From: an uncultured Pontibacter sp.
Lineage (GTDB): Bacteria; Bacteroidota; Bacteroidia; Cytophagales; Hymenobacteraceae
Direction: 5' to 3'
Assembly (NCBI RefSeq): GCF_947492645.1
Contig: NZ_CANLMZ010000013.1
Coordinates: forward strand, 10,195 to 74,194
Length of the DNA: 64,000 nucleotides
The position numbers and the translations under genes were made by a program. Shown piece by piece: positions 49,666-63,851 of this stretch (position 1 is its first letter; each line of letters opens with the position of its first letter). The notes under the pieces are model-generated. The model was not told the DNA's origin. It searched no databases and was given only the letters and a program-made list of their open reading frames with translations.

Positions 49666-52600
49666 TTATTTAATGTTTCCTATTTCAAAAGTATAATAAG
49701 GTTTTAACTCCAATACTTTAATATAATCAGCCCTTTTCTCAGGGTATCTACTAATTTTATTGAATAGTTTACCTCGCTTTAAATAGTATTCAGCCTCATA
49801 TGGATCTATTTCGATTGCCATTGAGTAATCATTTAAAGCACCTTTGTTATCTCCTTGCAATTCTTTTGTTTGTGCTCTTAAAAAATAGAACTCGGGATCA
49901 TAAGGCATTAACTCTATAGCTTTTGAATAATTTAGGATCGCTCCACTTACATCTGGAATCCCTAATTGTGCTTTGGCTTTTTGTTTATAAGTGTACTTAA
50001 TTGTAGGATCTGCTTTTAATGCTCTATCACATTCTTTAATAGCACCTATAAAGTCATCATGATTTATCATTAAAAGTATCTTATCAAAGATATACTCTCC
50101 ATTAAAAATATCTTCATTACCAATAGCTAAATCATAATATTTTAAAGCTTCATCATAGTTTCCATATTCACTTTCAATTTCAGCTTTAACAGTATGATAA
50201 TATCCTTCAAAATTAAAATAGCCTAGAGTATTAGCCTCATCGCAATCGCGTATAGCTCCTGTATAATCACCATTTTTTGATTTAACAAGGCATCTTAGTC
50301 GATAAACTGAGGAGTTGTAACTGTTGTTTGGGTACAATTCAAGAATTTCATTGCAATCTTCTATAGCTCCTTCATAATCTAGCAATTGAAATTTAGCATA
50401 TGCTCTGATATGAAGTCCGCCAAGACTTTGGTCGGCTAGTAAAGTGATCAGTTGGTAATCTTCATTTGCGCCATTATGATCACCAAGTTTATTTCTTAAT
50501 TCAGCTCTTAATTTATAATTAAAAATAGAAGGTTCGTGATTTATTACCCAATCAATAATTTCCAAAGCGCCATTATAATCACTTATATCCATTCTAAATC
50601 TAGCAAGATCTAAATAGCGAGGTATCTTATTAGGTGATAGTTCTATCAGCGTATTATATTCTTCCATAGCACCTAAATAATCACCATACTTGGCCCTTAA
50701 TTCAACTCTAACTCTGAAGTAATACTGTTCCACTAGATTAGAATTAAGCTCCTCCATCATTCCTGAAATATCTCCAGAAATTGCCTTCACTTTAGCTCTT
50801 TCGATGTATAGTAACCAATTGTCAGAAGTTAATGCTATGGCTTTATCATAATCATTTATTGCTCCTTGTAAATCACGAAACCAATTACTGCTTTTGGCCT
50901 CAGCTCTTTTTATATAATATTCAGCACTTTCAGGGGAATATTCAATAGCTTTATCGTAATCTTTAATCGCATCTTTGTGCTTGCCTAATTTGACTTTGAG
51001 CTCTGCACGCAAAATATAAAATTCGATTTCTGAAGGTTTTCTTGTAAGTACAATGTCTAAATCATTCACAGCATCAGAAAAATTTCCTAATTTTTCGTGA
51101 ATTTTAGCTCGTTTAATATAAAGTTTAGTTCTGCTAGGCTGTAATAAAATAAGTTTATCAAAATCTGAAAGAGCATTCTGCTGTTGATTAAGACGCAGAT
51201 AAATCTCAGCTCTATTTAGTAAATAATATCCCTTTGATGGTGTTAGTTCTATTATTCTAGAATACTCTGCAATTAGATTATTACAATATTCTTCATGTTT
51301 TGGTTGATTCTTTTCTAGATGCCTTTTTAGAATTATTTCTTTACAAAAAGCCTTTTCGCAGTACCCATTAACATCCTCAGGGTTAGAGCTAATGTGCTGG
51401 GAAAAATCATTAATTGCAGCTTCGTAGTCACCGAGGTTTTTATAGCATATGCCACGGTTAAAGTAAACGGGTGTTTGATAATCCTTGCAATTTTCTATAA
51501 TTCTATCCAAGTCCTTAATAGCCTCAACGTATTTCTCTTCTGAAATATGAGATATTGCTCTATGTTCCAGAGCGGAATAAAGTAGAGTGTTACTTAAAGA
51601 TTGGAAATTAATGACCTCGGTAAGATCATCAATTGCTGATTTATGAGAGCCTATTTTCTGCTTACATAAACCGGTCAATAATACTAAATTTTGCCATTCG
51701 TAATGAAAAGTATCGTCAGTAGTCGTTTTTTCGATGTAGGTAGAAGCATTATAAAAATAATCTATTGCATCACCATATTCCTCCTGTTTATAAAGAATTT
51801 GACCCATAAAAAAAACTGCTAAACCATTCTCGCAATCCTGTTCAAATGCAACACTACAGTCATCAAGTGCTTCGTCTAATCTATCTGCTTTAATGAGTGA
51901 ATATGCTCTAGCACAATATGCAGCTGGGTAATGAGAGTGAATTTCAATTGCTTTTGTAAAACATTCTATAGCTTTAATAAAATTAAAGTCTATATACATA
52001 AGGCCTAAAGTATAGTTATCTAGCGCTTCTTTTGCTATTGAATCATCTACTAAAGGTGTACTAAAATTAACAGGTGTGGGAGGAATTGATATATCATTTA
52101 TTAAATGAGATTCTGGTTCAACAGCTTTAGTAGCAATTATAAGATCATCTACTTCTTCCCTTTTAACACCTAGGTGAACAAGTATTTTTTTTATCTCATC
52201 TTCTGTAAATTTTTCTAAACCACAATAAATAAAATTACTGTCAGTAGCTATGCCTTGAATATCTGATATATGAAACCAACTATCTGTAATAGGTGATGTT
52301 TGCTGTATATAAACGATAGGCTTTTTAAATAACACCAACCCCTGAATACTATTGATAGCTCTTACTTGATAAAGTGATTGGCCTAATAGCTTAATATTGT
52401 TGTCTAAGGAAATGTAGGGATTATTGCCAACCATAACATTTTTTCCTGCTCTCCAATTACCCGTTTTTCTAGGTTCTATTCTTCCTCCATAATCCTGAAA
52501 GTCGATGATACAAACTGTGTTATTAGTAATTAGAACTGCATCGTATGGTTTATGATGAATGTAAACATTACCAACAAGAGCTAAAAATTTGTCTTCATCA

Positions 52601-52698
52601 GTCCAGGTTTCTCTTAGCCTTTCAGCTAGATCTTTAAATAACTGATTCTTAAATGAGGTGTTAAAGTAGGGGGCGTGGGAGAAAATATGTAAAGGCAT
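49666..52698 (-). CDS. NERD-like N-terminal domain fused to a very long TPR array
   Basis: 1010 aa. The N-terminus (LALVGNVYIHHKPYDAVLITNNTVCIIDFQDYGGRIEPRKTGNW) resembles the NERD nuclease-related domain with the E-x-K position changed to D-F-Q. From about aa 225 onwards there are about 20 or more 34-residue TPR-like units (A..Y..RA......G.Y..AI.DY..AI...P). Confidence 0.65.
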   Translation of the reverse strand: MPLHIFSHAPYFNTSFKNQLFKDLAERLRETWTDEDKFLALVGNVYIHHKPYDAVLITNNTVCIIDFQDYGGRIEPRKTGNWRAGKNVMVGNNPYISLDNNIKLLGQSLYQVRAINSIQGLVLFKKPIVYIQQTSPITDSWFHISDIQGIATDSNFIYCGLEKFTEDEIKKILVHLGVKREEVDDLIIATKAVEPESHLINDISIPPTPVNFSTPLVDDSIAKEALDNYTLGLMYIDFNFIKAIECFTKAIEIHSHYPAAYCARAYSLIKADRLDEALDDCSVAFEQDCENGLAVFFMGQILYKQEEYGDAIDYFYNASTYIEKTTTDDTFHYEWQNLVLLTGLCKQKIGSHKSAIDDLTEVINFQSLSNTLLYSALEHRAISHISEEKYVEAIKDLDRIIENCKDYQTPVYFNRGICYKNLGDYEAAINDFSQHISSNPEDVNGYCEKAFCKEIILKRHLEKNQPKHEEYCNNLIAEYSRIIELTPSKGYYLLNRAEIYLRLNQQQNALSDFDKLILLQPSRTKLYIKRAKIHEKLGNFSDAVNDLDIVLTRKPSEIEFYILRAELKVKLGKHKDAIKDYDKAIEYSPESAEYYIKRAEAKSSNWFRDLQGAINDYDKAIALTSDNWLLYIERAKVKAISGDISGMMEELNSNLVEQYYFRVRVELRAKYGDYLGAMEEYNTLIELSPNKIPRYLDLARFRMDISDYNGALEIIDWVINHEPSIFNYKLRAELRNKLGDHNGANEDYQLITLLADQSLGGLHIRAYAKFQLLDYEGAIEDCNEILELYPNNSYNSSVYRLRCLVKSKNGDYTGAIRDCDEANTLGYFNFEGYYHTVKAEIESEYGNYDEALKYYDLAIGNEDIFNGEYIFDKILLMINHDDFIGAIKECDRALKADPTIKYTYKQKAKAQLGIPDVSGAILNYSKAIELMPYDPEFYFLRAQTKELQGDNKGALNDYSMAIEIDPYEAEYYLKRGKLFNKISRYPEKRADYIKVLELKPYYTFEIGNIK

Positions 52699-52811: not shown

Positions 52812-53837
52812 CTACATACAATCACTACTTTTTATACTTTCTAGTAGACCGTATTCATGTAAGGCAAGACTAAAATCGTTTTTCATTTTTTCTTTCAGAT
52901 GGTCGGGCTCTATTACTACTAATTTATTGCCAAAGCTCAGCAGTTTTGCTTTTAGCTCTACATTAATACCTACCTCAAGTGTAAATGTATTATTTGCATT
53001 ATTTAGTAATTTTTGAGAGCTGTGTATAGGCTTTGTTTCAATGTATTTTCTATGGGACGCAACAATTTTAAAAATTACTGTTTCTATACCTGTAGCAGGT
53101 ATACTAACACCAATAAGGTGGTTAAGTTGATCCAATAATTGTGTGGCATTCTCAGGTGCTTGTAGTTCATTGGTTTGTTTTACGTCAATAATTCTATCGA
53201 GCGGAAAATTTTGAAGACACTTATAATCCTGATTATAGCCAATAAAAAACCAACGACCATTATATTCTTTTAACAATAAAGGGAAAGTATCAAAGTCTGC
53301 CGGAGCTTCATAAGAGAAGGGTTGATAGGAGATGGTAAGGCCTTGCTGTGCTTTGGTATAAACAAGTAATTTGCTTAACCATTTCTGAGCAGCAGGGTAC
53401 TCAGTCTTCTCAAATTGTATGTAGGAGCGCTCATCATCTTTTTTAGCAGATAATACATTCTGCAGCTTTTCTTCAACCTGGCGCAATGCTTCCAATTGAC
53501 CTAATTCGCTAAACTGCTCCAATACGGAAAGTGAATTTCTGATCGTCTGGTAATCTTCTTCTGTTAGAGGTGTGTTAGTGATAGAGAAGTTTCTGTCGCT
53601 ATAAAAATAATAGCCTTCTTCGCAAACTATAGGTGCTTCGTAACCAAACTTGCCGCTGCGCATATCCTTTATATCTTCCTGCACACTGCGCTTGCTTATA
53701 CCTTTATACACGCCTTCATATTCCTCAAGTGCTTCAGAACATTCTTCCATTAAATCGTCTAAAGTATATCTGCGGAATTTATTTCGGAAACATCTGTCTA
53801 ACACCTTTAAGCGGACCAGTTTATTCTTATTCGCCAT
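52812..53837 (-). CDS. WYL-domain transcriptional regulator (wHTH + WYL, BrxR/CapW-like architecture)
   Basis: 341 aa. The N-terminal HTH region is RLKVLDRCFRN...YTLDDLMEECS. The central WYL-type strand is YNGRWFFIGYN, and there is a C-terminal extension. Confidence 0.75.
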   Translation of the reverse strand: MANKNKLVRLKVLDRCFRNKFRRYTLDDLMEECSEALEEYEGVYKGISKRSVQEDIKDMRSGKFGYEAPIVCEEGYYFYSDRNFSITNTPLTEEDYQTIRNSLSVLEQFSELGQLEALRQVEEKLQNVLSAKKDDERSYIQFEKTEYPAAQKWLSKLLVYTKAQQGLTISYQPFSYEAPADFDTFPLLLKEYNGRWFFIGYNQDYKCLQNFPLDRIIDVKQTNELQAPENATQLLDQLNHLIGVSIPATGIETVIFKIVASHRKYIETKPIHSSQKLLNNANNTFTLEVGINVELKAKLLSFGNKLVVIEPDHLKEKMKNDFSLALHEYGLLESIKSSDCM

Positions 53838-53859
53838 ATATTTTTTAATATATTTGAGA

Positions 53860-53895
53860 AATGCAGAAAGGCTGCACTTTAGTATAATACTTTTG
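53860..53895 (+). promoter_or_regulatory. 19-bp element AATGCAGAAAGGCTGCACT + TAnnTTTG box (copy 1, WYL/ATPase divergent region)
   Basis: The element at 53860-53878 contains the palindrome TGCAG-N5-CTGCA. TACTTTTG at 53888-53895 starts 10 nt after the element. The element sequence and spacing are identical at 56442-56477. Confidence 0.65.
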
Positions 53896-53899
53896 TATC

Positions 53900-55423
53900 A
53901 TGAATAGAATATCACTGTCCAATTTTAGGATTTTCCAGAAGGCAACAGCGTTTGATCTTGCCCCTATCACTATACTTACCGGCAGAAATAGTTCTGGAAA
54001 ATCTTCCCTAATTAAAGCTTTTATTCTATTAGCTGATTTTATTGGTTCAGAAGAAAGCCATTTAAGACTAAATCTAAATGGTGAAAGAGCTTCTAAACAT
54101 AAAATTAACAAATTTGAAAACTTAAAGAATTGGTTTGAGGAGGATAATGAAACAATATTATCTTATGAAGATGATGAATATGTGTTCACACTTACCTTTC
54201 GACTTTTTGTAGAGCCAAATTTTGCAGAATTAGATAGTTTACATATAGAACTTAAGCCCTTAAAAGATATACTAAAGCTTGAAAATGCTTATGGATCATA
54301 TGAATTATCAGTATCTCAAAATTTTATAGACTTTACTACCAAGGGTGACGCAGACAAAGATATACTCAAGAGTCAGGCTGAATATCTCAATGAATTCAAA
54401 ATAATCAAAGAAGAGTTTAAGAAGCTTTCATCTATACTACATTCTAAAGACGATTTTAACTATGGTTCGCGAGGAAATGGATCTTCAGTTGATTCAATGG
54501 TGGATGTAGTTGAGCAAAGGCAAAAGATTGAAACTAGGATGGCTTTGCTCAAGTCAATTATCAATCCAAACTATTTTAAAGATAAAGGTATCAACTTCCA
54601 ATCAAATGTTGATATTGAAAACTTTTATAGACCAACAATTCCAAATTTGATTAAAGATTGTTTGTTAAAGTATGTAGACACAAATACTTCTTACAAATTT
54701 TCAAACAAAGAAGAGCGAAGGTATATTTTAGATTTTACTGATAAGCTAAAAAAGTTGATGAGCTTTACTTCTTATCATTTAGGACCTAATAGGACATTTC
54801 AATCGAGATTATACAATAATGATCATAATGGAAGTGAGATAAACAAAATAATTGAAGACTTTATAATACATGAACCTGTACACAACTCAGAAGCAGGGTT
54901 ATTTCTGCGTAAGTGGTTGAAAAGGTTCGAGATAGGCGATTTACTATCCGTAGAGCAAATAGAAGGAACTGCTACAAAAGTAGAAGTACGGCAGAAAGGC
55001 AGGTTGGTAAACTTAGCAGATTTAGGTTTTGGTGCAGGTCAAATTCTCACTATACTTATGCATGTTACCGCTATCATTGAGAGAAAGCTATCCAATTCAA
55101 AGCATTCAGAAACTATTCTTGTCTTAATTGAAGAGCCAGAAGCAAACTTACATCCCAAACTACAATCTTTATTAGCAGAGTTCTTCGCCGAAGCTGCTCT
55201 AAAATATAATCTGCAGTTTATTTTAGAGACACATTCCGAATACTTAATTAGGAAGGTGCAGGTGCTGGTGAAGGAGAAAAAACTTAACAGTTTATTCAAG
55301 GTGTATTACTTTGATGAAGAGGGGCCTTACGAAATGAAAATGCGGGAAGATGGAAAGTTCATTGATGAATTTGGAGAAGGCTTTCTAGATGAATCAAGAA
55401 AGCTTGCTTTTAAAGTCCTTTAG
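53900..55423 (+). CDS. AAA_15/ABC-type ATPase (OLD/Gabija-class N-terminal ATPase fold, DUF3696-like C-terminus)
   Basis: 507 aa with Walker A LTGRNSSGKSSL, signature/Walker B region LVLIEEPEANLHP, an H-loop ETHSEYL, and a long helical insertion between them. Confidence 0.75.
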   Translation: MNRISLSNFRIFQKATAFDLAPITILTGRNSSGKSSLIKAFILLADFIGSEESHLRLNLNGERASKHKINKFENLKNWFEEDNETILSYEDDEYVFTLTFRLFVEPNFAELDSLHIELKPLKDILKLENAYGSYELSVSQNFIDFTTKGDADKDILKSQAEYLNEFKIIKEEFKKLSSILHSKDDFNYGSRGNGSSVDSMVDVVEQRQKIETRMALLKSIINPNYFKDKGINFQSNVDIENFYRPTIPNLIKDCLLKYVDTNTSYKFSNKEERRYILDFTDKLKKLMSFTSYHLGPNRTFQSRLYNNDHNGSEINKIIEDFIIHEPVHNSEAGLFLRKWLKRFEIGDLLSVEQIEGTATKVEVRQKGRLVNLADLGFGAGQILTILMHVTAIIERKLSNSKHSETILVLIEEPEANLHPKLQSLLAEFFAEAALKYNLQFILETHSEYLIRKVQVLVKEKKLNSLFKVYYFDEEGPYEMKMREDGKFIDEFGEGFLDESRKLAFKVL

Positions 55424-55428
55424 CCGAT

Positions 55429-56436
55429 ATGAGACTACACATAGACAAAGCCAATTTGATTAACATCTTTCGTGAGGATGAGCACTATCTTCAAAAAGAT
55501 GTCATCAAAACTATGAAGCTTAACCTTGATGTACAGTTTAATTTCTCTAAACAAGAAATAGGAGCTGATGAATTTCTTTCGATGCAAATGCTTCAATTTA
55601 CTGAGGGTATTGGAGAAGATGTTGATCATTTTTATGAAGAAGAGAATTATGTACCTTATCTAATTGACAGCGATGTACACAAATCTCATCCAAACAAACA
55701 ATCTCTTTTCCTGCTAGATAATCCAGCAGAAGTAATACAAGAATGTAAATTAAATGGGGGTTTATTGATTCAAGGTTTAGGTGAGGAGTTTGACCTTTTT
55801 GAAAAGTTGTTTCTATTCAGAAAGGATGCTGGTTTTCATAAAGGATTGAAAATAGGATCTGATCATCTAAAATCGTGGCCATGTTTAAGCCCTTATGCAC
55901 TGCCATTCACGGATCTAATTTTGATAGATAATTATATAGCAAATGACTCTTCAATTTTAGATAGCAACTTAATTGATTTGCTTAAGAACCTTCATCTTAA
56001 TAAAAGTATAGAAACTAACATAGTCATATTCACAGATAAGACTAAACAGGCTATCAGTATTGATAACCTAAGAAGTAAGATAATTAAGGCAATAAAGAAA
56101 GTTACTGGAAAATGCCCCAAAGTTACCATAGTGCTTTGGAAAGAGTCAAAAGATAGAAAGCATATAGATTATGGTAACCAATACACCGAACATGACCGAA
56201 CTATACTTCTGAACTATGTTAGGTTTAAATCTGGAGACTCTTTTAATTACTTCAATAGTAGTGGAGTGAAAATCACTCTTGGAAGAGAATTGGATATATT
56301 CAGTTTGGCCAATAGAGATAATTTTATACTTGCTAAAGATATTATCAATGACTTGAATAAGTATATAGCTTGGGCAAAGGAAAAAAACTCTGAAAACATA
56401 CAGGGCGACAAAAAGTCAAATTTTTTAAAATTTTAA
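55429..56436 (+). CDS. hypothetical protein, likely partner of the upstream ATPase
   Basis: 335-aa ORF starting 6 nt after the ATPase stop. AT-rich, with no recognised motif. Confidence 0.55.
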   Translation: MRLHIDKANLINIFREDEHYLQKDVIKTMKLNLDVQFNFSKQEIGADEFLSMQMLQFTEGIGEDVDHFYEEENYVPYLIDSDVHKSHPNKQSLFLLDNPAEVIQECKLNGGLLIQGLGEEFDLFEKLFLFRKDAGFHKGLKIGSDHLKSWPCLSPYALPFTDLILIDNYIANDSSILDSNLIDLLKNLHLNKSIETNIVIFTDKTKQAISIDNLRSKIIKAIKKVTGKCPKVTIVLWKESKDRKHIDYGNQYTEHDRTILLNYVRFKSGDSFNYFNSSGVKITLGRELDIFSLANRDNFILAKDIINDLNKYIAWAKEKNSENIQGDKKSNFLKF

Positions 56437-56441
56437 ATTCC

Positions 56442-56477
56442 AATGCAGAAAGGCTGCACTCCCTGCCCGTACCTTTG
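56442..56477 (+). promoter_or_regulatory. 19-bp element AATGCAGAAAGGCTGCACT + TAnnTTTG box (copy 2, upstream of hsdM)
   Basis: The element is at 56442-56460. TACCTTTG at 56470-56477 starts 10 nt after the element, as in copy 1. Confidence 0.65.
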
Positions 56478-56505
56478 CATTATAATTACAGAATAACACA
56501 TACCC

Positions 56506-58224
56506 ATGGCCGATAAGAGACCTACCATAGATTTTATTTTCCGCATCACGAACGATGTGCTTTGGAATACCTTTAAGAAGAATGAGATTGGCGATGTGAT
56601 GCTACCCTTTGTGGTGCTGCGCCGCCTGGACTGTATACTGGAGCCGCAGAAGCAGGCGGTACGCGATGCCTACCTGAACTTTAAGGACAAAGTGCAGCCC
56701 GACAAGCTGGGACCGATCTTGGAGCGTGCCGCTGGCGGCCTGAAATACTACAACACGTCGCCTTACGATCTGCGTGCCCTAACACAGGATGCGCAGAACG
56801 TGGAGATCAACTTCCGGGCCTACATCAACGGCTTCAGCCCGAACGTGACCGAGATTATGGAGCACTACCAGCTTGATAAGGTGGTGGCCCGACTGGTGAA
56901 GAATAACCTGCTTTACGAAATGGTAGCGGCCATTGCAAAAGTAGACCTACACACCAGCGCCGTGAGCAACCACGACATGGGCTATGTTTTCGAGGAGCTG
57001 ATCCGTATCTCGAATGAGCAATCTAACCAGACGGCGGGAGAGCACTTTACGCCGCGTGAAGTGATTCGCCTGATGGCCAGCGTAATCTTCAGCACCGAGA
57101 AGGAGGAACTGAAACAGACAGGGGTGATACGCACCATTTACGACCTGGCCTGCGGTACGGGTGGTATGCTCACGCTGAGCAAGCACTATGTGCACGAGCA
57201 CATTAACAAGGATGCTAGCCTGAACATCTTCGGGCAGGAGATAAACGAGCAGTCGTACGCCATTGCCAAGTCGGACCTGTTGATTACGGGCGAGAATCCG
57301 GACAACATACGCCACGGCAACTCGTTCTCGAACGACCGCTTCCCGGACCGCAAGTTTAACTACATGCTGGCTAACCCGCCCTATGGTGTAAGCTGGAAAA
57401 AAGACGAAATCTTTATAAAGCACGAGGCGCTTAACCCGATGGGCCGCTTTAATGCAGGCTTGCCGCGCACGTCGGATGGGCAGTTCCTGTTTATCCAGCA
57501 CATGATTTCGAAGATGGACCCGCAGGGCAGCCGCATAGGTATTGTTACAAACGGTTCGCCGCTGTTTACCGGCGATGCGGGCTCTGGCGAGAGCGAGATC
57601 CGTAAGTGGATCATCTCCAACGACTGGCTGGATGCCATCATTGCGCTGCCGTCCGACATCTTCTACAACACGGGTATTTATACTTATATCTGGGTGGTAA
57701 CGAACAAGAAGCAGCCACACCGCAAAGGCAAAGTGCAGCTGATAAACGCCACTGACCTGTATGTGCCCATGAAGAAGAGCCTGAACTTTAAACGGAAGCG
57801 CATTTCGGATGATCAGATTAAGGAGATTACCCGCCTGTACGAGGCTTTTGAAGAAGGCCCGCAGGTGAAGATCTTTGATAACGAGAGCTTTGGCTACTTC
57901 CAGGTAACGATAGAGCAGCCGGTGCGCAAAAACGGCAAGGTGGTGCTGGATAAAAACGGCGAGCCAAAGGCCGATAGCAAGAAGCGCGACACCGAAAATA
58001 TACCACTCAACGAGAATATAGAGGAGTACTTTGTACGCGAAGTGAAGCCGCATGTGCCGGATGCCTGGATAGACTTCAGCAAGACGCGCATTGGCTACGA
58101 GATAAACTTTACTAAGTACTTCTACCAATACCAGAAGCCGGATGATTCTGCTAAACTGAAAGTTGAGATTCAGAAATTAGAGGAATCTATAGTGGGGCTT
58201 TTAGAAGAGATTTTGAACGACTAA
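56506..58224 (+). CDS. hsdM: type I restriction-modification system, DNA methyltransferase subunit M
   Basis: 572 aa with an HsdM N-terminal helical domain, SAM motif I (IYDLACGTGGML) and catalytic motif IV LANPPYG. Confidence 0.92.
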   Translation: MADKRPTIDFIFRITNDVLWNTFKKNEIGDVMLPFVVLRRLDCILEPQKQAVRDAYLNFKDKVQPDKLGPILERAAGGLKYYNTSPYDLRALTQDAQNVEINFRAYINGFSPNVTEIMEHYQLDKVVARLVKNNLLYEMVAAIAKVDLHTSAVSNHDMGYVFEELIRISNEQSNQTAGEHFTPREVIRLMASVIFSTEKEELKQTGVIRTIYDLACGTGGMLTLSKHYVHEHINKDASLNIFGQEINEQSYAIAKSDLLITGENPDNIRHGNSFSNDRFPDRKFNYMLANPPYGVSWKKDEIFIKHEALNPMGRFNAGLPRTSDGQFLFIQHMISKMDPQGSRIGIVTNGSPLFTGDAGSGESEIRKWIISNDWLDAIIALPSDIFYNTGIYTYIWVVTNKKQPHRKGKVQLINATDLYVPMKKSLNFKRKRISDDQIKEITRLYEAFEEGPQVKIFDNESFGYFQVTIEQPVRKNGKVVLDKNGEPKADSKKRDTENIPLNENIEEYFVREVKPHVPDAWIDFSKTRIGYEINFTKYFYQYQKPDDSAKLKVEIQKLEESIVGLLEEILND

Positions 58225-58230
58225 GAAGGT

Positions 58231-59535
58231 ATGAGCAAACAGTACGAAGAGTATAAAGATTCAGGAATTGAGTGGCTGGGGGAAATTCCATCGCATTGGG
58301 GGATTAGCTTTCTTAAACATACAGCAGATTTTGTTAATGGCGCTGCCTTCAAACCTGAAAGCTGGCAAGATGAAGGAATACCTATTGTTAGGATTCAAAA
58401 CCTGAATGGTAGTCAAGATTTCAATTATGTGGATCCTTCTTTAGAAGTAAATAGAAACTGCTATTTGTCTGGTGGTGAACTTCTATTCTCATGGTCTGGG
58501 AATATTGGAACTTCTTTCGGTCCATTCTTCTGGCAAGAAGAGAGAGAAGCATACTTAAACCAGCACATATTTAAAGTAACTAACTATGAGCTGCATACTC
58601 GCTACTTCTATTGGTTATTAAGAGCTGTTACCAAATACATTGAGTCTAAGACACATGGTATTATTGGTATGGTACACATCACCAAAAAGGAACTTGGTGG
58701 GATACCTATACCTAAAATTAGCTACGAAGAACAAGAAGCAATTGGGGATTATATAGACTATAAAACCGGACAGATTGACAAGCTTATTGCTCAGAAAGAA
58801 GAGTTGATGAAGCTGTTGCAGAAGAAGCGCCAAGCCATCATCAACGAAGCCGTAACGCAAGGCCTTAACCCCGACGCTCCCCGCCGCGATTCAGGTATAC
58901 AATGGCTCGGCGAAATTCCTGCTCATTGGGAGGTGAGTAAGATTAAAAGGATAGCGCAAGTTAAACGCGGTGCTTCACCACGACCAATCGATGACGAGAA
59001 GTACTTTGATGAAGAAGGAGAATATGCTTGGGTTCGAATTTCAGATGTTACTGCAAGCAACAAATACCTTGAGCGTACAGAGGAATCTCTTTCTGAATTA
59101 GGTTCATCATTGAGTATAAAAATGAATCCTGGTGATCTATTTTTAAGCATTGCAGGCTCTGTGGGTAAACCAATTATCACGAATATAAAATGTTGTATTC
59201 ATGACGGTTTCGTTTGGTTTGAAGATTTAGATATTGATAGAGAGTTTTTATACTATATCTTTTTAAGTGGTGAAGCATTCAAGGGACTTGGGAAATTGGG
59301 GACTCAACTTAATTTAAATACAGAGACCGTTGGAAGTATCGATATAGCCATACCACCACAGGATGAAATTAAGGCCATAGTTGAGTATCTTAATAATCAG
59401 ACTTCAAAACTTGACAGTTTATTAGGTGAGCTAAGATCTCAAATACTAAAAATTAAATCCTATCGTCAATCCATTATCAGCGAAGTGGTAACGGGTAAGG
59501 TAGATGTGCGCGATGTAGTGCTGAACGAAGTATAA
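58231..59535 (+). CDS. hsdS: type I restriction-modification system, specificity subunit S
   Basis: 434 aa with two target-recognition halves, each opening with GI(E/Q)WLGEIP(S/A)HW, separated and followed by conserved helical spacers. It starts 7 nt after hsdM. Confidence 0.9.
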   Translation: MSKQYEEYKDSGIEWLGEIPSHWGISFLKHTADFVNGAAFKPESWQDEGIPIVRIQNLNGSQDFNYVDPSLEVNRNCYLSGGELLFSWSGNIGTSFGPFFWQEEREAYLNQHIFKVTNYELHTRYFYWLLRAVTKYIESKTHGIIGMVHITKKELGGIPIPKISYEEQEAIGDYIDYKTGQIDKLIAQKEELMKLLQKKRQAIINEAVTQGLNPDAPRRDSGIQWLGEIPAHWEVSKIKRIAQVKRGASPRPIDDEKYFDEEGEYAWVRISDVTASNKYLERTEESLSELGSSLSIKMNPGDLFLSIAGSVGKPIITNIKCCIHDGFVWFEDLDIDREFLYYIFLSGEAFKGLGKLGTQLNLNTETVGSIDIAIPPQDEIKAIVEYLNNQTSKLDSLLGELRSQILKIKSYRQSIISEVVTGKVDVRDVVLNEV

Positions 59536-59575: not shown

Positions 59576-60817
59576 ATGGTAATTGATAAAACTCTACGCG
59601 CTGATTTTAAAAATTGGCTTGTACAAGAGGCTCAAGTAAATGGAGTAAGCCCTGAACAGAAAAAGAAATCTATCAGCAGTATCGTATCAAATGCTTTGTC
59701 GTTTGATGTGGGATGTCAACAACTATATTACATAAAGAACCAAACTGCAACCACAAACTGGGAAGATACCTTTGCCACTATTTCAAGTACATTTCCTGGC
59801 GTCGTTAAAGGCGATCGTTTCTCAGCTGTTCGGTATTTAAGTTTATCTTGGCATTACCCGCAGGGGCTGCCACAAACAGTTGCAGAAGGGCCTTTCAGAA
59901 AAAATACCAGCAATAAGATAGTTACGCCAAAACCTAAAACAATTAAAACTACTGTTGTTAAGCAAACTATAAGCGCTACTGCTATTGCGTCTGCACCTGT
60001 AAATTTCCAGCCAAGCGTGTATCATTACGATCCAGTTGAAATGCGCAGAGCATTTAAAAGCAGGCTTGGTACGCAAGAACGTGACTATTTACAAGAAGGC
60101 ATCCGCTTTCCTATCAGAATGTTACAGCTTAAAAGTTGTGCGGGATTGGTTCCTACTATGTCAACTTATTTTCAGCATCAGATAGATACAATCGTTTTTC
60201 TTTGTACTGCACATCGTAACCCCGACAATGCAGCATTTTATTCGGCATATGAAGAAGTATTGTTTAAGGACATAACACAAGTGCGAGCAACCGTAAAATC
60301 TGCTGGGCCAGTTTATGAACTGCAACGCCAGGGAGATGCGCATTGGTATACCATTTTGCACCGCACCTACACACGCGCAAACGGAAGTTTCCGTGAAGAT
60401 GGTGTTGTCAATCTCACTGTTCCGGAAGCCAACTTTATGAAGCTACTAGGTAATGGAAAAGACCTAAAGCCGGCACTCTTTGCGAAACTAACATTAGACC
60501 ACAGAGATTCTTTTCACTCCATCTTAAAGAGCTATAAAAACACAAAAGGTAAGGCTATGGATGGTTTGCTTGAAGTTTCATCTATAGTTAAAGATATGGC
60601 TCTAAAGCGCGGAGTTAATATTAGCAAACGTCGCTTTCATAAAGATGAACTCAAAACACAGCGATCCATCTATACACAGTTAGCGCAAGATCTAAATGCG
60701 CAGCCCCGTATAGTTGCTTGTTTAATAGATGAAGTTGAGTTTATCAATTCCCAAAGTCAATTAGAGATCATGGAGTTTTCTATGAACAGTAAAAAAGGGA
60801 AAGATAAATTTGATTAA
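59576..60817 (+). CDS. hypothetical protein inserted between hsdS and hsdR
   Basis: 413-aa ORF on the same strand with short gaps to both neighbours. No recognised motif. Confidence 0.6.
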   Translation: MVIDKTLRADFKNWLVQEAQVNGVSPEQKKKSISSIVSNALSFDVGCQQLYYIKNQTATTNWEDTFATISSTFPGVVKGDRFSAVRYLSLSWHYPQGLPQTVAEGPFRKNTSNKIVTPKPKTIKTTVVKQTISATAIASAPVNFQPSVYHYDPVEMRRAFKSRLGTQERDYLQEGIRFPIRMLQLKSCAGLVPTMSTYFQHQIDTIVFLCTAHRNPDNAAFYSAYEEVLFKDITQVRATVKSAGPVYELQRQGDAHWYTILHRTYTRANGSFREDGVVNLTVPEANFMKLLGNGKDLKPALFAKLTLDHRDSFHSILKSYKNTKGKAMDGLLEVSSIVKDMALKRGVNISKRRFHKDELKTQRSIYTQLAQDLNAQPRIVACLIDEVEFINSQSQLEIMEFSMNSKKGKDKFD

Positions 60818-60872
60818 CCTTTTAGCAGTAAGAGTAGCTTACCAATAAACCGAACAAAGACTAAGATAAACT

Positions 60873-63851
60873 ATGGCAACAGGAACAAAAGAACTACACT
60901 TAGAGGAACACATTGAGCAACACCTGGTAACAAAATATGGCTACCATGAGCTGCACACCAGCCTTTATGATAAAGAACTTTGCCTTGTGCCTGAAGAGGT
61001 TATTGGCTTTTTAGAAGCCACACAACCGAAGCCCCTTAAAGCCCTGCGCGAGCACTACGGGGCACGAGCCGACGAGCGTATAGTTACGAACATCAGTAAG
61101 AACATAACCAAGTTTGGTACCTTGCATGTGCTGCGCGAAGGTGTAAAAGATGCCGGGCAAAAACTACGCCTGACCTACTTTAAGCCCGTGAGTGGCATGA
61201 ACAAAGAGCACCAGGAGCTATACCAGGCTAATTACTTCAGCGTCATCCGCCAGTTGCAGTACTCCAAGTTCAACAGCAACTCGCTGGACCTGGTTATTTT
61301 CCTGAACGGTTTGCCATTGCTTACTTCCGAGCTCAAAAACGCTCTTACCGGCCAATACCTGACCGACGCCATACGCCAGTACCGCGAAGACCGTGATCCT
61401 AAAGAGCCGCTCTTTGCTTATAAGCGCTGCCTGGTGCACTTTGCCGTCAGCACCGAAAAAGTAGCCATGGCTACCAAGTTGGCCGGCCTAAAAACATTCT
61501 TCCTGCCTTTTAATCAGGACGTAGAAAACCCTGTGAACCCTAACGGCTTCAAGACCGAATACCTGTGGGACGACGTTTGGGCACCTGATTCGCTGCTGGA
61601 CCTGGTGCAGAACTTCGTGAATGAGCAGACCGACCAGGAAGTATACTTCAATGAAAAGGAAGGCAAACTGGATATTAAAAAGTCAGAAAAGCTGATCTTT
61701 CCGCGCTATCACCAGCGCAAAGCTGTTTACAAGCTCCTTAATGCCGTAGCGCACGAAGGCGTAGGGCATCGCTACCTGATCAAGCACTCTGCGGGTTCGG
61801 GCAAGTCCAATACCATTTCTTGGCTGGCGCACCGTCTGTCTAACTTCTTCCAGAACCAAACCGACGAAAAATCGCTGTTTGACTCGGTGATTGTGGTAAC
61901 AGATCGCCGCGTACTAAACAAGCAGCTGATTGCTAACATTAAGCAGTTTGAGCAGGTACCGGGCGTTATTGCCGCCATAGACGAGAAACAGCCGGGCGCA
62001 GAACTGAAAAAGGCGATAGAAGAAGGCAGCCGTATCATCATTACCACGCTGCAAAAGTTCCCTGTAATATCCGATACCATTGCTCGTCACCCCGACAGGC
62101 GCTATGCTGTGATCATAGACGAGGCTCATAGCTCACAGTCGGGGGAATCGGCACGCCACCTGCGCAAATCCCTTAGCCTGAACGAAGCTGAGCAGGAAGA
62201 CCAGCAAGAAAAAGAACTGGATGATCTTGTATTAGATGAGATCCAGAGCCGTGGCCGTCAAAACAACGTGTCGTTCTTCGCCTTTACTGCTACGCCAAAA
62301 CCGAAGACAATTGAGCTCTTCGGTACAAAGGTAGATGGTAAGCTAGAGCCGTTTGATGAGTACACCATGCGTCAGGCCATTGCCGAAGGCTTTATTCTGG
62401 ATGTGCTGGGTAACTATACGCCGTTTAAACGCTACTATAAACTAGCCAAACGCAGCAGCTCTGATGACAAGGAGTATGAAACGCGCAAAGCCGTGCGCCT
62501 GCTCACGTCTTACGTAGACCTGCAGGACCACGCCATTGAGTTGAAGTCGCGCATCATGCTGGAGCACTTTGTTAGCAAAACAGCAAACGAAATTAATGGT
62601 CGTGCACGCGCCATGGTCGTTACTCGTTCTAGGCTGCATGCCGTGCGTTACAAGTGCAAGTTCGATGCCCTGATGCAGGAAATGAAGCTGCCTTACAGAG
62701 CCTTGGTAGCTTTCTCTGGAACCGTGCATGATGCTGAAACAGGCATGGATTATACCGAAACCAGTATGAACGACCTGGGTGGCAACATCAGCATACCCGA
62801 TGCGCTTAAGCTGCCGCAAAACCGCATTCTGATTGTGGCTAACAAGTACCAAACTGGCTTTGATGAGCCTTTGCTGCACACGATGTTCGTGGACAAGAAG
62901 TTGGGTGGCGTAAACACGGTACAAACCCTGAGCCGTCTGAACCGCACTACTTCTGGCAAGGGTGGTACGATGGTGCTTGACTTTGTGAATGATCCGGAAG
63001 ACATTCAGGCTGACTTCCAGGACTACTTCGACCTGAACTTTATGGCCGAAGATAACCAGACCGATCCGAACACGCTTTATGATTTGCAGACTGAGATCAG
63101 CTTGCAGGGTGTCGTGACCAGTGTGGAGCTGGAGGCCTATGCAGAAGTGTTCTTCCGTAAAGGTGATAACAAACAGCTGCTGCAACCACTACTGGGTACT
63201 GCCTTGAAGCGCTTTACCGACGAGCTGGAGGAAGATGCTCAGGACAAGTTCCGCGCCGATGCCCGCGACTTTGTGCGCCTCTACAAGTTCCTGAGCCAGA
63301 TCATCACTTTCTCGGATGTGGAGCTGGAGAAGCTTTACGTATTCCTGAACCACCTGCTGAAAGTGTTGCCACTAAAAGGCAGCGACCTGCCGCAGGAAGT
63401 TCTGAATGAGGTGCAGCTGGATAGTTACAAAATTCAGCAGCAGGGCCAGCAAAATATTACTTTAGTGGAAGAGCCGGCTGAGTTGTATGGCCAAACTCGT
63501 AGTGGCGGAGGTAACGGAAGTGATGAGTTACGCGACCTGCTCTCTAACATCATCAAAACCCTAAATGACACCTATGGTCTGGAATTGACTGATGATGACA
63601 AACTAGACTTCGAACAAATACGGAACCGCCTGGAAAGTGACCAGGAGTTACTGGGCATCTTCAACCCCAACAACTCCCGCGAGAACATCAAAGACAAGTT
63701 CAACGATGTGCTGGACCAGGCCCTGCTTGACTTCATAGATACTAAGCTGGACCTGTATAACAAGCTGTCGGAAGACAAGGCAAACGCTACGTTGAAGCGC
63801 CTGTGGTTTAACTCATTGTATGATGCCAGAATTAGAGGGCTAGGCAAATAA
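60873..63851 (+). CDS. hsdR: type I restriction enzyme, endonuclease/helicase subunit R
   Basis: 992 aa with an N-terminal nuclease-type region (DLVIFLNGLPLLTSELK: D...E-x-K), SF2 helicase motif I (HSAGSGKS), motif II DEAH (VIIDEAHSSQ), motif III (FAFTATP) and motif VI (QTLSRLNR). Confidence 0.92.
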   Translation: MATGTKELHLEEHIEQHLVTKYGYHELHTSLYDKELCLVPEEVIGFLEATQPKPLKALREHYGARADERIVTNISKNITKFGTLHVLREGVKDAGQKLRLTYFKPVSGMNKEHQELYQANYFSVIRQLQYSKFNSNSLDLVIFLNGLPLLTSELKNALTGQYLTDAIRQYREDRDPKEPLFAYKRCLVHFAVSTEKVAMATKLAGLKTFFLPFNQDVENPVNPNGFKTEYLWDDVWAPDSLLDLVQNFVNEQTDQEVYFNEKEGKLDIKKSEKLIFPRYHQRKAVYKLLNAVAHEGVGHRYLIKHSAGSGKSNTISWLAHRLSNFFQNQTDEKSLFDSVIVVTDRRVLNKQLIANIKQFEQVPGVIAAIDEKQPGAELKKAIEEGSRIIITTLQKFPVISDTIARHPDRRYAVIIDEAHSSQSGESARHLRKSLSLNEAEQEDQQEKELDDLVLDEIQSRGRQNNVSFFAFTATPKPKTIELFGTKVDGKLEPFDEYTMRQAIAEGFILDVLGNYTPFKRYYKLAKRSSSDDKEYETRKAVRLLTSYVDLQDHAIELKSRIMLEHFVSKTANEINGRARAMVVTRSRLHAVRYKCKFDALMQEMKLPYRALVAFSGTVHDAETGMDYTETSMNDLGGNISIPDALKLPQNRILIVANKYQTGFDEPLLHTMFVDKKLGGVNTVQTLSRLNRTTSGKGGTMVLDFVNDPEDIQADFQDYFDLNFMAEDNQTDPNTLYDLQTEISLQGVVTSVELEAYAEVFFRKGDNKQLLQPLLGTALKRFTDELEEDAQDKFRADARDFVRLYKFLSQIITFSDVELEKLYVFLNHLLKVLPLKGSDLPQEVLNEVQLDSYKIQQQGQQNITLVEEPAELYGQTRSGGGNGSDELRDLLSNIIKTLNDTYGLELTDDDKLDFEQIRNRLESDQELLGIFNPNNSRENIKDKFNDVLDQALLDFIDTKLDLYNKLSEDKANATLKRLWFNSLYDARIRGLGK

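Follow-up and report, generated by a model that had tools for sequence, protein, structure and literature searches.

The occurrence of WYL regulators beside defense genes is already known. BrxR, described from E. fergusonii pEFER and Acinetobacter NEB394, and CapW of the cyclic oligonucleotide-based antiphage signaling system (CBASS) each place a regulator of winged helix-turn-helix (wHTH)-WYL-WCX architecture next to defense genes, and in the BrxR islands an inverted-repeat operator with a 5-bp spacer occurs twice, at the start of the regulator gene and again ahead of the defense operon, with one regulator serving several systems (PMC9122601). The promoters of PafBC, a regulator of mycobacteria, have a canonical −10-type box but no −35-type box, and a factor-specific element stands at a set distance from the former (PMC8635444), while DdaA of Moraxellaceae, a homodimeric wHTH-WYL-WCX activator of ~335 aa (a length shared with PafB and DriD), recognizes the motif CGWCA-N5-TGWCG and directly controls type I restriction-modification (R-M) and CRISPR promoters (PMC12392091). 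Among regulators of other families, RtcR-like CARF/sigma-54 activators have been linked to Rtc RNA repair or R-M systems, the regulator of proteobacterial rtcBA being an obligate activator (Makarova et al. 2014, PMC4012209). For Bacteroidota, no WYL operator, regulon or mechanism was found described in the literature searched. Here we analyze a 64-kb stretch from an uncultured Pontibacter sp. (contig NZ_CANLMZ010000013.1, positions 10,195–74,194; hereafter, the window), in which a 19-bp palindromic element, AATGCAGAAAGGCTGCACT, stands both between a WYL regulator gene and an ATPase gene and before the hsdM gene of a type I R-M operon. We propose, with a probability of roughly 0.88, that a dimer of the WYL protein binds this palindrome and that its two copies make one regulon.

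The Pontibacter locus matches each of the described systems in part. The BrxR-type layout recurs in that TGCAG-N5-CTGCA is found 24 nt from the start codon of the WYL gene and again before hsdM; however, BrxR and CapW are 288–299 aa long as against 341 aa here and are weakly matched by the profile of the present family, and BrxR reads half-sites of 10–11 bp in an R-box downstream of the −10 box, whereas the present element, apparently directional, lies at a strictly fixed distance 5′ of the −7 box and takes the place of the −33 box. PafBC, likewise of the WYL family, is the best sequence match in PDB for the family seen here, and its hybrid promoter layout recurs as a fixed 15 nt between the palindrome and the TTTG of the −7 box (k=15 below), a spacer of free sequence and no TTTG at −33. 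Yet PafBC is a heterodimer that engages a non-palindromic −26 element through one HTH and sigma region 4 through the other, whereas here there is a single WYL gene, the palindrome extends across the −26-like and −35-like positions, implying that both HTH domains would be on DNA, and the sigma factor and promoter code (Bacteroidota −7/−33) are different. DdaA shares the 5-N5-5 palindrome format but is a chromosome-wide DNA-damage regulator rather than an island-local one, and its operator position is not the one found here, where the palindrome centre is 19 nt before the −7 box (~−31 to −34). The RtcR-like activators are alike in their two classes of cargo (RtcB-type RNA repair and R-M modules) and in possessing a ligand-sensing domain, but differ in their unrelated CARF-AAA+-HTH architecture and sigma-54 promoter. 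To judge from sequence, the WYL regulator of the window would not be of the BrxR/CapW clade, nor PafBC-like in its subunits, nor DdaA-like in its operator position, although it would function as a WYL operator system does. What seems to be new is a promoter-embedded, fixed-position, directional operator in the Bacteroidota −7/−33 code, kept across the phylum, together with the probable shared control of R-M and a pair of ATPase and phospholipase D (PLD)-like genes here and of RNA repair elsewhere.

The element and its two promoters in the window

The 19-mer has two exact copies in the window, at 53860–53878 and 56442–56460, both on the plus strand and exactly where the original prediction had placed them, and when up to three mismatches are allowed these are still the only copies (0.03 expected; at least two copies in 0 of 100 shuffles). 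Its core, TGCAG-N5-CTGCA, is a perfect 5-N5-5 palindrome, the perfect form of which is restricted in the window to these two copies. When scored with the family-wide weight matrix described below, copy 1 reaches 36.7 bits and copy 2 41.5 bits, with the runner-up in the window at 7.5 bits.

Copy 1 (core TGCAGAAAGGCTGCA), a predicted WYL operator pointing to the ATPase promoter, lies in the 62-bp divergent gap (53838–53899) that separates the WYL gene from the AAA_15 ATPase gene, a placement in which the earlier reading was right, and the distance of 24 nt is measured from the end of its core to the WYL start codon. The same position and spacing recur in four other loci (L004, L006, L120 and L121). 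Copy 2, a predicted WYL operator ahead of hsdM, is placed in the 69-bp gap between the end of a 335-aa gene (56436) and the start of hsdM (56506), and is conserved in L006, L120, L121 and L122.

Bacteroidota housekeeping promoters have a consensus of TTTG at −33 and TAnnTTTG at −7. A box of the latter form follows each copy on the plus strand, TACTTTTG at 53888–53895 before the ATPase gene and TACCTTTG at 56470–56477 before hsdM, each box starting 10 nt past the end of the element, as had been noticed at the outset. The intervening 9-nt spacers are unrelated in sequence (ttagtataa after copy 1, ccctgcccg after copy 2), and a 9-nt spacer after the 19-mer is equivalent to N15 from core to TTTG, which is the geometry fixed across the family. 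With 11 nt from the end of the palindrome core to the −7 box, the palindrome spans ~−38 to −24, the usual place of the −33 TTTG box, and the claim that the element covers the −33 region of both promoters holds when positions are set by the Bacteroidota consensus. A TTTG at −33 (~19–21 nt 5′ of the −7 box) is absent in both copies, the palindrome letters GCAG/AAAG standing there instead. Toward the WYL gene, across copy 1, the equivalent offset offers merely TATTAAAA, which is unconvincing as a −7 box of its own.

The ATPase start codon comes just 4 nt past the −7 box (box and codon at 53888–53902), the same 4-nt gap being present in L006 and L007, and since the gap is so short, the ATPase mRNA may be leaderless or nearly so. 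The hsdM box is followed by a 28-nt leader, which is partly conserved with L001 and L006.

The reading that we favor builds on the location, conservation, covariation and geometry of the element, all of which are observed directly. A dimer of the adjacent wHTH-WYL-WCX regulator would sit on the palindrome, with TGCAG and CTGCA as half-sites about a 5-bp centre, and the ATPase/PLD-like cassette and the hsdMS-x-R operon would be two transcription units of a single WYL regulon. Copy 1 also abuts the start of the WYL gene itself.

The element across WYL loci

The closest locus of the same architecture, L006, encodes a WYL protein 73% identical to that of the window and has AATGCAGAAAGACTGCACT (one substitution) at the ATPase promoter and the exact 19-mer at hsdM. 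Including it, the palindrome stands at both the ATPase and the hsdM promoters in five further WYL-ATPase-hsd loci (L006, L120, L121 and L122/L123), which supports the suggestion that the element ties the WYL gene, the ATPase cassette and hsd into one regulon. The WYL protein is 57% identical to that of the window in Spirosoma knui (L120) and 33% identical in L122/L123, with the WYL gene of L122 co-oriented with its cargo. The half-sites of L122 read TGCAA..TTGCA in all six copies, i.e., they have changed together, and in L120 all three copies read TGCAGAAA(T/C)GCTGCA. In Pontibacter chinhatensis (L004) the WYL protein is 78% identical and the neighboring genes are entirely different, and the element keeps its 24-nt distance to the WYL ATG and points to a TACTTTTG box; a second element lies 2.5 kb off before a 115-aa gene, and both copies are 9 nt from a −7-like box. 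All of the first eight copies compared, from the window and its WYL-gene relatives, have 9-nt spacers of unrelated sequence.

A historical origin of the two copies had also been considered, namely that the repeat records insertion of an AT-rich ATPase cassette by promoter capture; as a mere insertion scar, copy 2 would have no present role. In keeping with it, the direct repeats flank a 2.58-kb segment of ~32% GC (the value for the WYL, ATPase and 335-aa genes) beside hsd genes of ~52% GC (50–54% for hsdM and hsdR, 30–35% for their neighbors), and a block of 91% identity with L006 starts at 56423, just 5′ of copy 2. However, an AAA_15 ATPase gene and a ~335-aa gene stand directly 5′ of hsdM in all six relatives examined (L006, L007, L120, L121, L122 and L124, among them one viral contig and one locus without WYL); L006, L120, L121 and L122, along with L123, have the WYL gene as well. 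The pair is kept even where the WYL protein is 33% identical or absent. Moreover, both copies persist where flanks and coding regions have diverged to 26–73% protein identity, both L122 copies carry the same derived half-site, the spacers differ and conservation does not extend past the 19-bp element and its −7 box. In this hsd family the cassette is a long-standing and constant partner, and the insertion or promoter-capture explanation, here rejected, appears very improbable.

Hymenobacter metallicola (L124) has the same ATPase-p335-hsdMSR genes without a WYL gene. Its WYL slot is occupied (L124:3604–5082) by an RtcR-like CARF/sigma-54 activator (NCBIfam RtcR 1.4e-71; Pfam RtcR domain 21 bits), and a scan of its ATPase and hsdM promoters found the element at neither. 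By its sequence, this locus is a natural control, in which the element follows the WYL gene and not the cargo, the two regulators being analogous, through non-orthologous displacement, and not homologous. The absence of the element here, along with the covariation described below, also backs its link to the WYL gene. As a side observation, a TGGCAC ~60 nt 5′ of the L124 ATPase ATG may be a sigma-54 −24 box.

A count of the exact 19-mer in 185,579 species-representative genomes (596 Gb) returned three matches against ~4 expected by chance. In one of them, a Bacteroidaceae metagenome-assembled genome (L001), a TAnnTTTG box follows the element after 9 nt (TATGTTTG), and the element is 0.7 kb downstream of a WYL/WCX gene whose product is 33% identical to that of the window, with a degenerate second copy ahead of the intervening gene. 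No −7 box accompanies the matches in L002 (Anaerolineaceae) and L003 (Eisenbergiella), whose surroundings are unrelated, and both were discarded as chance matches. A dispersed repeat, which the original prediction had named as a possible refutation, is ruled out by this count, the two copies in the window and the lack of further matrix sites there.

Whether the geometry extends beyond near relatives was assessed with 12 IMG/VR and 80 metagenome loci encoding WYL homologues of 26–38% identity. A scan of 928 kb around 96 WYL genes for TGCA-N7-TGCA-N(k)-TTTG, with k from 3 to 35, gave 29 matches at k=15 and 0–3 at every other k. A 42-nt weight matrix built from the composite sites and applied at a cut-off of at least 14 bits gave 100 matches across the WYL loci and none in shuffled sequence, with at least one site in 70 of 96 loci and in 59 of 77 protein clusters at 90% identity. 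Among these sites, 42 fall within 120 bp 5′ of the WYL ATG, where a few distances are favored, and 13 just past the WYL stop codon, and in many loci two back-to-back sites serve divergent promoters. A large subfamily with CGCA..TGCG half-sites likewise has its main peak at k=15 (52 matches). The CGCAAAATAAYTGCG subclass is coherent at k=16, keeping the extra base throughout, and the reverse side of its palindrome faces a TAnnTTTG at k=21 toward the WYL gene; from this arrangement, one palindrome is seen as serving two divergent promoters at different distances. Members of this subclass occur in L091, L092 and L096, ~−50 to −115 from the WYL ATG.

The consensus of 86 unique sites is CTR-YGCA-RAWAGAY-TGCR-YAG, N8, TAnnTTTGCA. 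Its spacer positions have no base preference but a fixed length, and in the count table of the 86 sites TTTG is missing at −33. The palindrome has an asymmetric centre (RAWAG), and because purines prevail there on the promoter strand of nearly all these sites, the palindrome is taken to be directional and oriented to the −7 box. With the resulting cis-code, YGCAR-N5-YTGCR 11 nt before TAnnTTTG, the WYL regulons of gut, rumen, soil and marine Bacteroidota could be predicted directly from sequence.

This fixed geometry also bears on the notion that the palindrome is a site-specific recombination or attachment (att)-like site marking the boundaries of cassettes in a defense island. The palindrome does lie at a boundary of modules (hsd at 91% nucleotide identity with L006, WYL/ATPase at 69%), and the cargo beside WYL genes is variable. 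Nevertheless, the distance and orientation to the −7 box are fixed in the 86 unique sites, no recombinase gene is consistently adjacent in the loci compared, and both the WYL gene and RNA-repair genes of a housekeeping type have copies 5′ to them; a recombination site was rejected on the fixed promoter geometry and is the least credible of the explanations weighed.

The half-sites, in turn, vary along with the regulator. All 29 of 29 loci with CG-type proximal half-sites (CGCA..TGCG) have the helix RT[VI]Q.D[IL]Q.MRS, while TGCA-type loci have K, N, S or T at the position of its second Q. The window, whose putative recognition helix is SKRSVQEDIKDMRS, has in common with L004, L006 and L120 the helix KRS[VI]QED[IM]KDMRS and TGCAG half-sites, and L001, L009 and L016 have in common the helix KKRQVQEDLKFIES, again with TGCAG half-sites. 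A soil clade with TGCAA half-sites and the helix LRTIRLDLNAMRS is 46% identical to the CG clade and 33–35% identical to other TGCA clades, and differs in exactly the helix residues. Such covariation is the pattern to be expected if the HTH domain of the WYL protein reads the half-sites, and that a protein only 33% identical (L001) accompanies an identical 19-mer would be explained by the helix reading the half-sites.

Some points limit how firmly the element can be assigned to WYL proteins. Common descent confounds the covariation of helix and half-site. Since the WYL gene was the route by which the loci were gathered, Bacteroidota DNA far from WYL genes is thinly sampled for the motif, the controls being the rest of the window, L124 (0 matches) and a scan of IMG/VR. 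In that scan, with TGCAG-N5-CTGCA-N11-TAnnTTTG, a WYL gene was in range for 3 of 21 matches, many of which were near contig ends or in coding repeats, and about six promoter-like sites have no WYL gene in the fetched stretch. On predicted viral contigs (L103, L104, L111 and L113) such sites take the form TGCAGATA(C/G)ACTGCAC + N10 + TAnnTTTG; they could be targets regulated in trans, or phage promoters exploiting a host WYL regulator.

These viral sites, together with the 44 of 100 matrix matches more than 120 bp from a WYL gene, are also what speaks for another factor, i.e., a global regulator or an alternative sigma element, as the reader of the palindrome, with the WYL gene a mere passenger of the island. 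Such an account, however, has to contend with the 42 sites within 120 bp of the WYL ATG at few preferred distances, the covariation of half-sites with the WYL recognition helix, the disappearance of the element where an RtcR-like regulator replaces WYL, the lack of further sites in the 64 kb of the window and a two-fold symmetry that suits a dimeric HTH protein and not a sigma factor; it appears improbable.

Activation or repression of the proposed regulon

If the WYL dimer is the reader of the palindrome, the sign of its action remains to be weighed, and on the sequence evidence the odds are about even for an activator or dual regulator, with a pure repressor given a lesser but serious share and all else a small one. 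Were the WYL protein a ligand-dependent activator or dual regulator, which is an evenly poised proposition, it would take the place of the −33 contact that the housekeeping sigma factor lacks here, comparable to the "sigma adaptation" of PafBC, and the module would come on once the WYL domain detects a signal derived from nucleic acid, e.g., single-stranded DNA (ssDNA) or damaged nucleic acid. The rival account, a BrxR/CapW-type repressor as in the original prediction, would have the WYL protein occlude the −33 region of both promoters, and probably of its own, until a ligand releases it from DNA; we regard it as possible though rather less probable.

The leaning toward activation comes from several sides. 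The distance to the −7 box does not vary even though the intervening bases are unconstrained, and the k=16 subclass is uniform in keeping its extra base, whereas occlusion by a repressor needs no fixed distance to the −7 box. There is no TTTG at −33, and the palindrome centre is directional toward the −7 box, which also tells against simple occlusion. When compared with PDB, the family profile matches PafBC, PafB and DriD with E-values of 1e-8 to 1e-6, the WCX domain included, as against 2.4e-4 for BrxR_Efer, 0.2 for BrxR_Acin and 0.02–0.04 for CapW; the family is thus nearer in sequence to the former set than to BrxR/CapW, and its length of ~335 aa is like that of PafB, DriD and DdaA. Obligate activators occupy the equivalent slot in L124 and in proteobacterial rtc operons, and DdaA, which recognizes a 5-N5-5 palindrome, provides a precedent for activation of type I R-M by a WYL protein. 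The hybrid layout is that of PafBC promoters, and DriD, too, binds its own promoter. Further, the own box of BrxR_Efer lies downstream of the −10 box and not at the −35 box.

On the other side, the evidence for an operator (conservation, geometry and covariation) applies equally to a repressor, and a number of points weigh against activation. The palindrome overlaps the core promoter, and a site at −38 to −24 is a classic position for a repressor, too. The −7 and −33 assignments at both copies are presumptive, as they follow the Bacteroidota consensus rather than mapped starts, and with −7 boxes so near to consensus, the promoters might work without a −33 box. The similarity to PafBC/DriD is weak and confined to the WYL/WCX domains, and PafBC contacts DNA through one HTH of its heterodimer, in contrast to the two-fold palindrome here. 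The cargo includes a potentially toxic ATPase/nuclease pair. The characterized WYL regulators of dedicated defense islands, BrxR and CapW, are all repressors (PMC9122601, PMC11662680). Both are released by ssDNA (PMC11662680), and the BrxR islands have two boxes of 5-bp spacer, at the regulator's own promoter and before the defense operon (PMC9122601).

A broader view, tentative and somewhat short of an even chance, is that a phylum-wide class of Bacteroidota WYL proteins acts as a substitute for the −33 contact. Such proteins would be the homodimeric counterpart of PafBC sigma adaptation, a dimer on a directional palindrome letting the housekeeping RNA polymerase use incomplete promoters, and would switch on conflict modules on demand, i.e., RNA repair by RtcB, Ro60 and RlaP or the combination of ATPase, PLD-nuclease and type I R-M, being interchangeable with the RtcR-like CARF/sigma-54 activators. 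If the geometry does reflect activation, actinobacteria would not be the sole setting of sigma adaptation, which would also operate in a sigma/promoter system of a very different kind, and some restriction systems would be induced rather than constitutive.

The cassette, its cargo relatives and the gene context

The regulator itself (52812–53837, minus strand, 341 aa) is a wHTH-WYL-WCX, YafY-like protein by its Pfam matches to WYL (1.1e-6) and WCX (3.6e-7) and by the PADLOC WYL profile, which spans residues 6–314; its N-terminal HTH is deduced from the family alignment and from homologue names (HTH/YafY regulators). Look-ups of the exact WYL and HsdM proteins of the window gave no record, and homologues were used instead.

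The cassette that copy 1 faces begins with an AAA_15/ABC-type ATPase of 507 aa (53900–55423, plus strand), which is matched by Pfam AAA_15 and AAA_21 and is NsnB- and AriA-like in PADLOC. Its 335-aa partner (55429–56436, plus strand) has no match in Pfam, NCBIfam or PADLOC and was identified through structure alone: an AlphaFold2 (AF2) model with a pLDDT of 91 has as its best PDB matches in Foldseek phospholipase D, the R-protein of NgoAVII (a PLD-type restriction enzyme) and Tdp1, at E-values of 8e-5 to 1e-3 and TM-scores of 0.28–0.36. An invariant motif, H255-x-R257-x4-N262-x6-G269-D270-x2-N273, resembles the HKD signature, and the protein may be a nuclease effector with an HKD-like fold of the PLD superfamily. 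From the modeled fold, the cassette is best read as an ABC-type ATPase with a PLD-like nuclease. The pairing of an ABC-type ATPase with a nuclease is a common two-gene logic in defense. The constancy of the pair before hsdM suggests that it is a fixed functional partner of the type I R-M system, e.g., a back-up or guard nuclease.

The type I R-M operon under copy 2 is complete in Pfam and PADLOC terms, all genes being on the plus strand: hsdM (56506–58224; Pfam HsdM_N and N6_Mtase, PADLOC MTase_I 2.4e-240) encodes the methyltransferase, hsdS (58231–59535; Pfam Methylase_S, PADLOC Specificity_I) the specificity subunit and hsdR (60873–63851; Pfam HSDR_N, SWI2_SNF2, ResIII and T1R_D3-like) the restriction subunit. 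Between the window and L006, the HsdM proteins are 98.8% identical, as against 73% for WYL, 51% for the ATPase and 26% for p335, and at the DNA level 56423–58352 and 60866–61428 (hsdM and hsdR) are 89–91% identical, as against 69% for the WYL/ATPase block. As the 91% identity block begins at 56423, just 19 nt 5′ of copy 2, the hsd unit would appear to have been exchanged as a module along with its own element-bearing promoter.

Elsewhere, the cargo behind promoters with the motif includes RtcB (in many loci), Ro60/TROVE, RlaP, hsdR, hsdM, fusions of N6_Mtase and HATPase_c, ASCH proteins and AAA_15 ATPases. The control of RNA-repair genes by this WYL family would be a counterpart of that by RtcR, and one kind of sensor would link type I R-M and its constant ATPase/PLD-like module with the RtcB/Ro60 RNA-repair operons of sister clades. 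Examples with RtcB, Ro60/TROVE and RlaP under the motif are found in L020, L023, L025, L052, L055, L074 and L084, along with many others, on contigs of gut, rumen and soil Bacteroidota.

The hsd operon includes a variable slot, filled in the window, between hsdS and hsdR, by a 413-aa protein (59576–60817, plus strand), for which searches of Pfam, NCBIfam and PADLOC gave no match and which is unassigned in function by family. The slot is empty in L124 and is otherwise taken by a 505-aa unknown (L006:603–2120), an SLFN_AlbA_2/HATPase_c_4 protein (L120:9841–11784) or RmuC (L122:11044–12294).

Directly downstream of the WYL gene, after a 113-bp gap that has no copy of the element, comes a gene for a NERD-TPR protein of 1010 aa (49666–52698, minus strand), with a NERD nuclease-related domain, a long TPR array and an N-terminus like PADLOC PDC-M16A, and the surroundings of these two genes look like a defense island.

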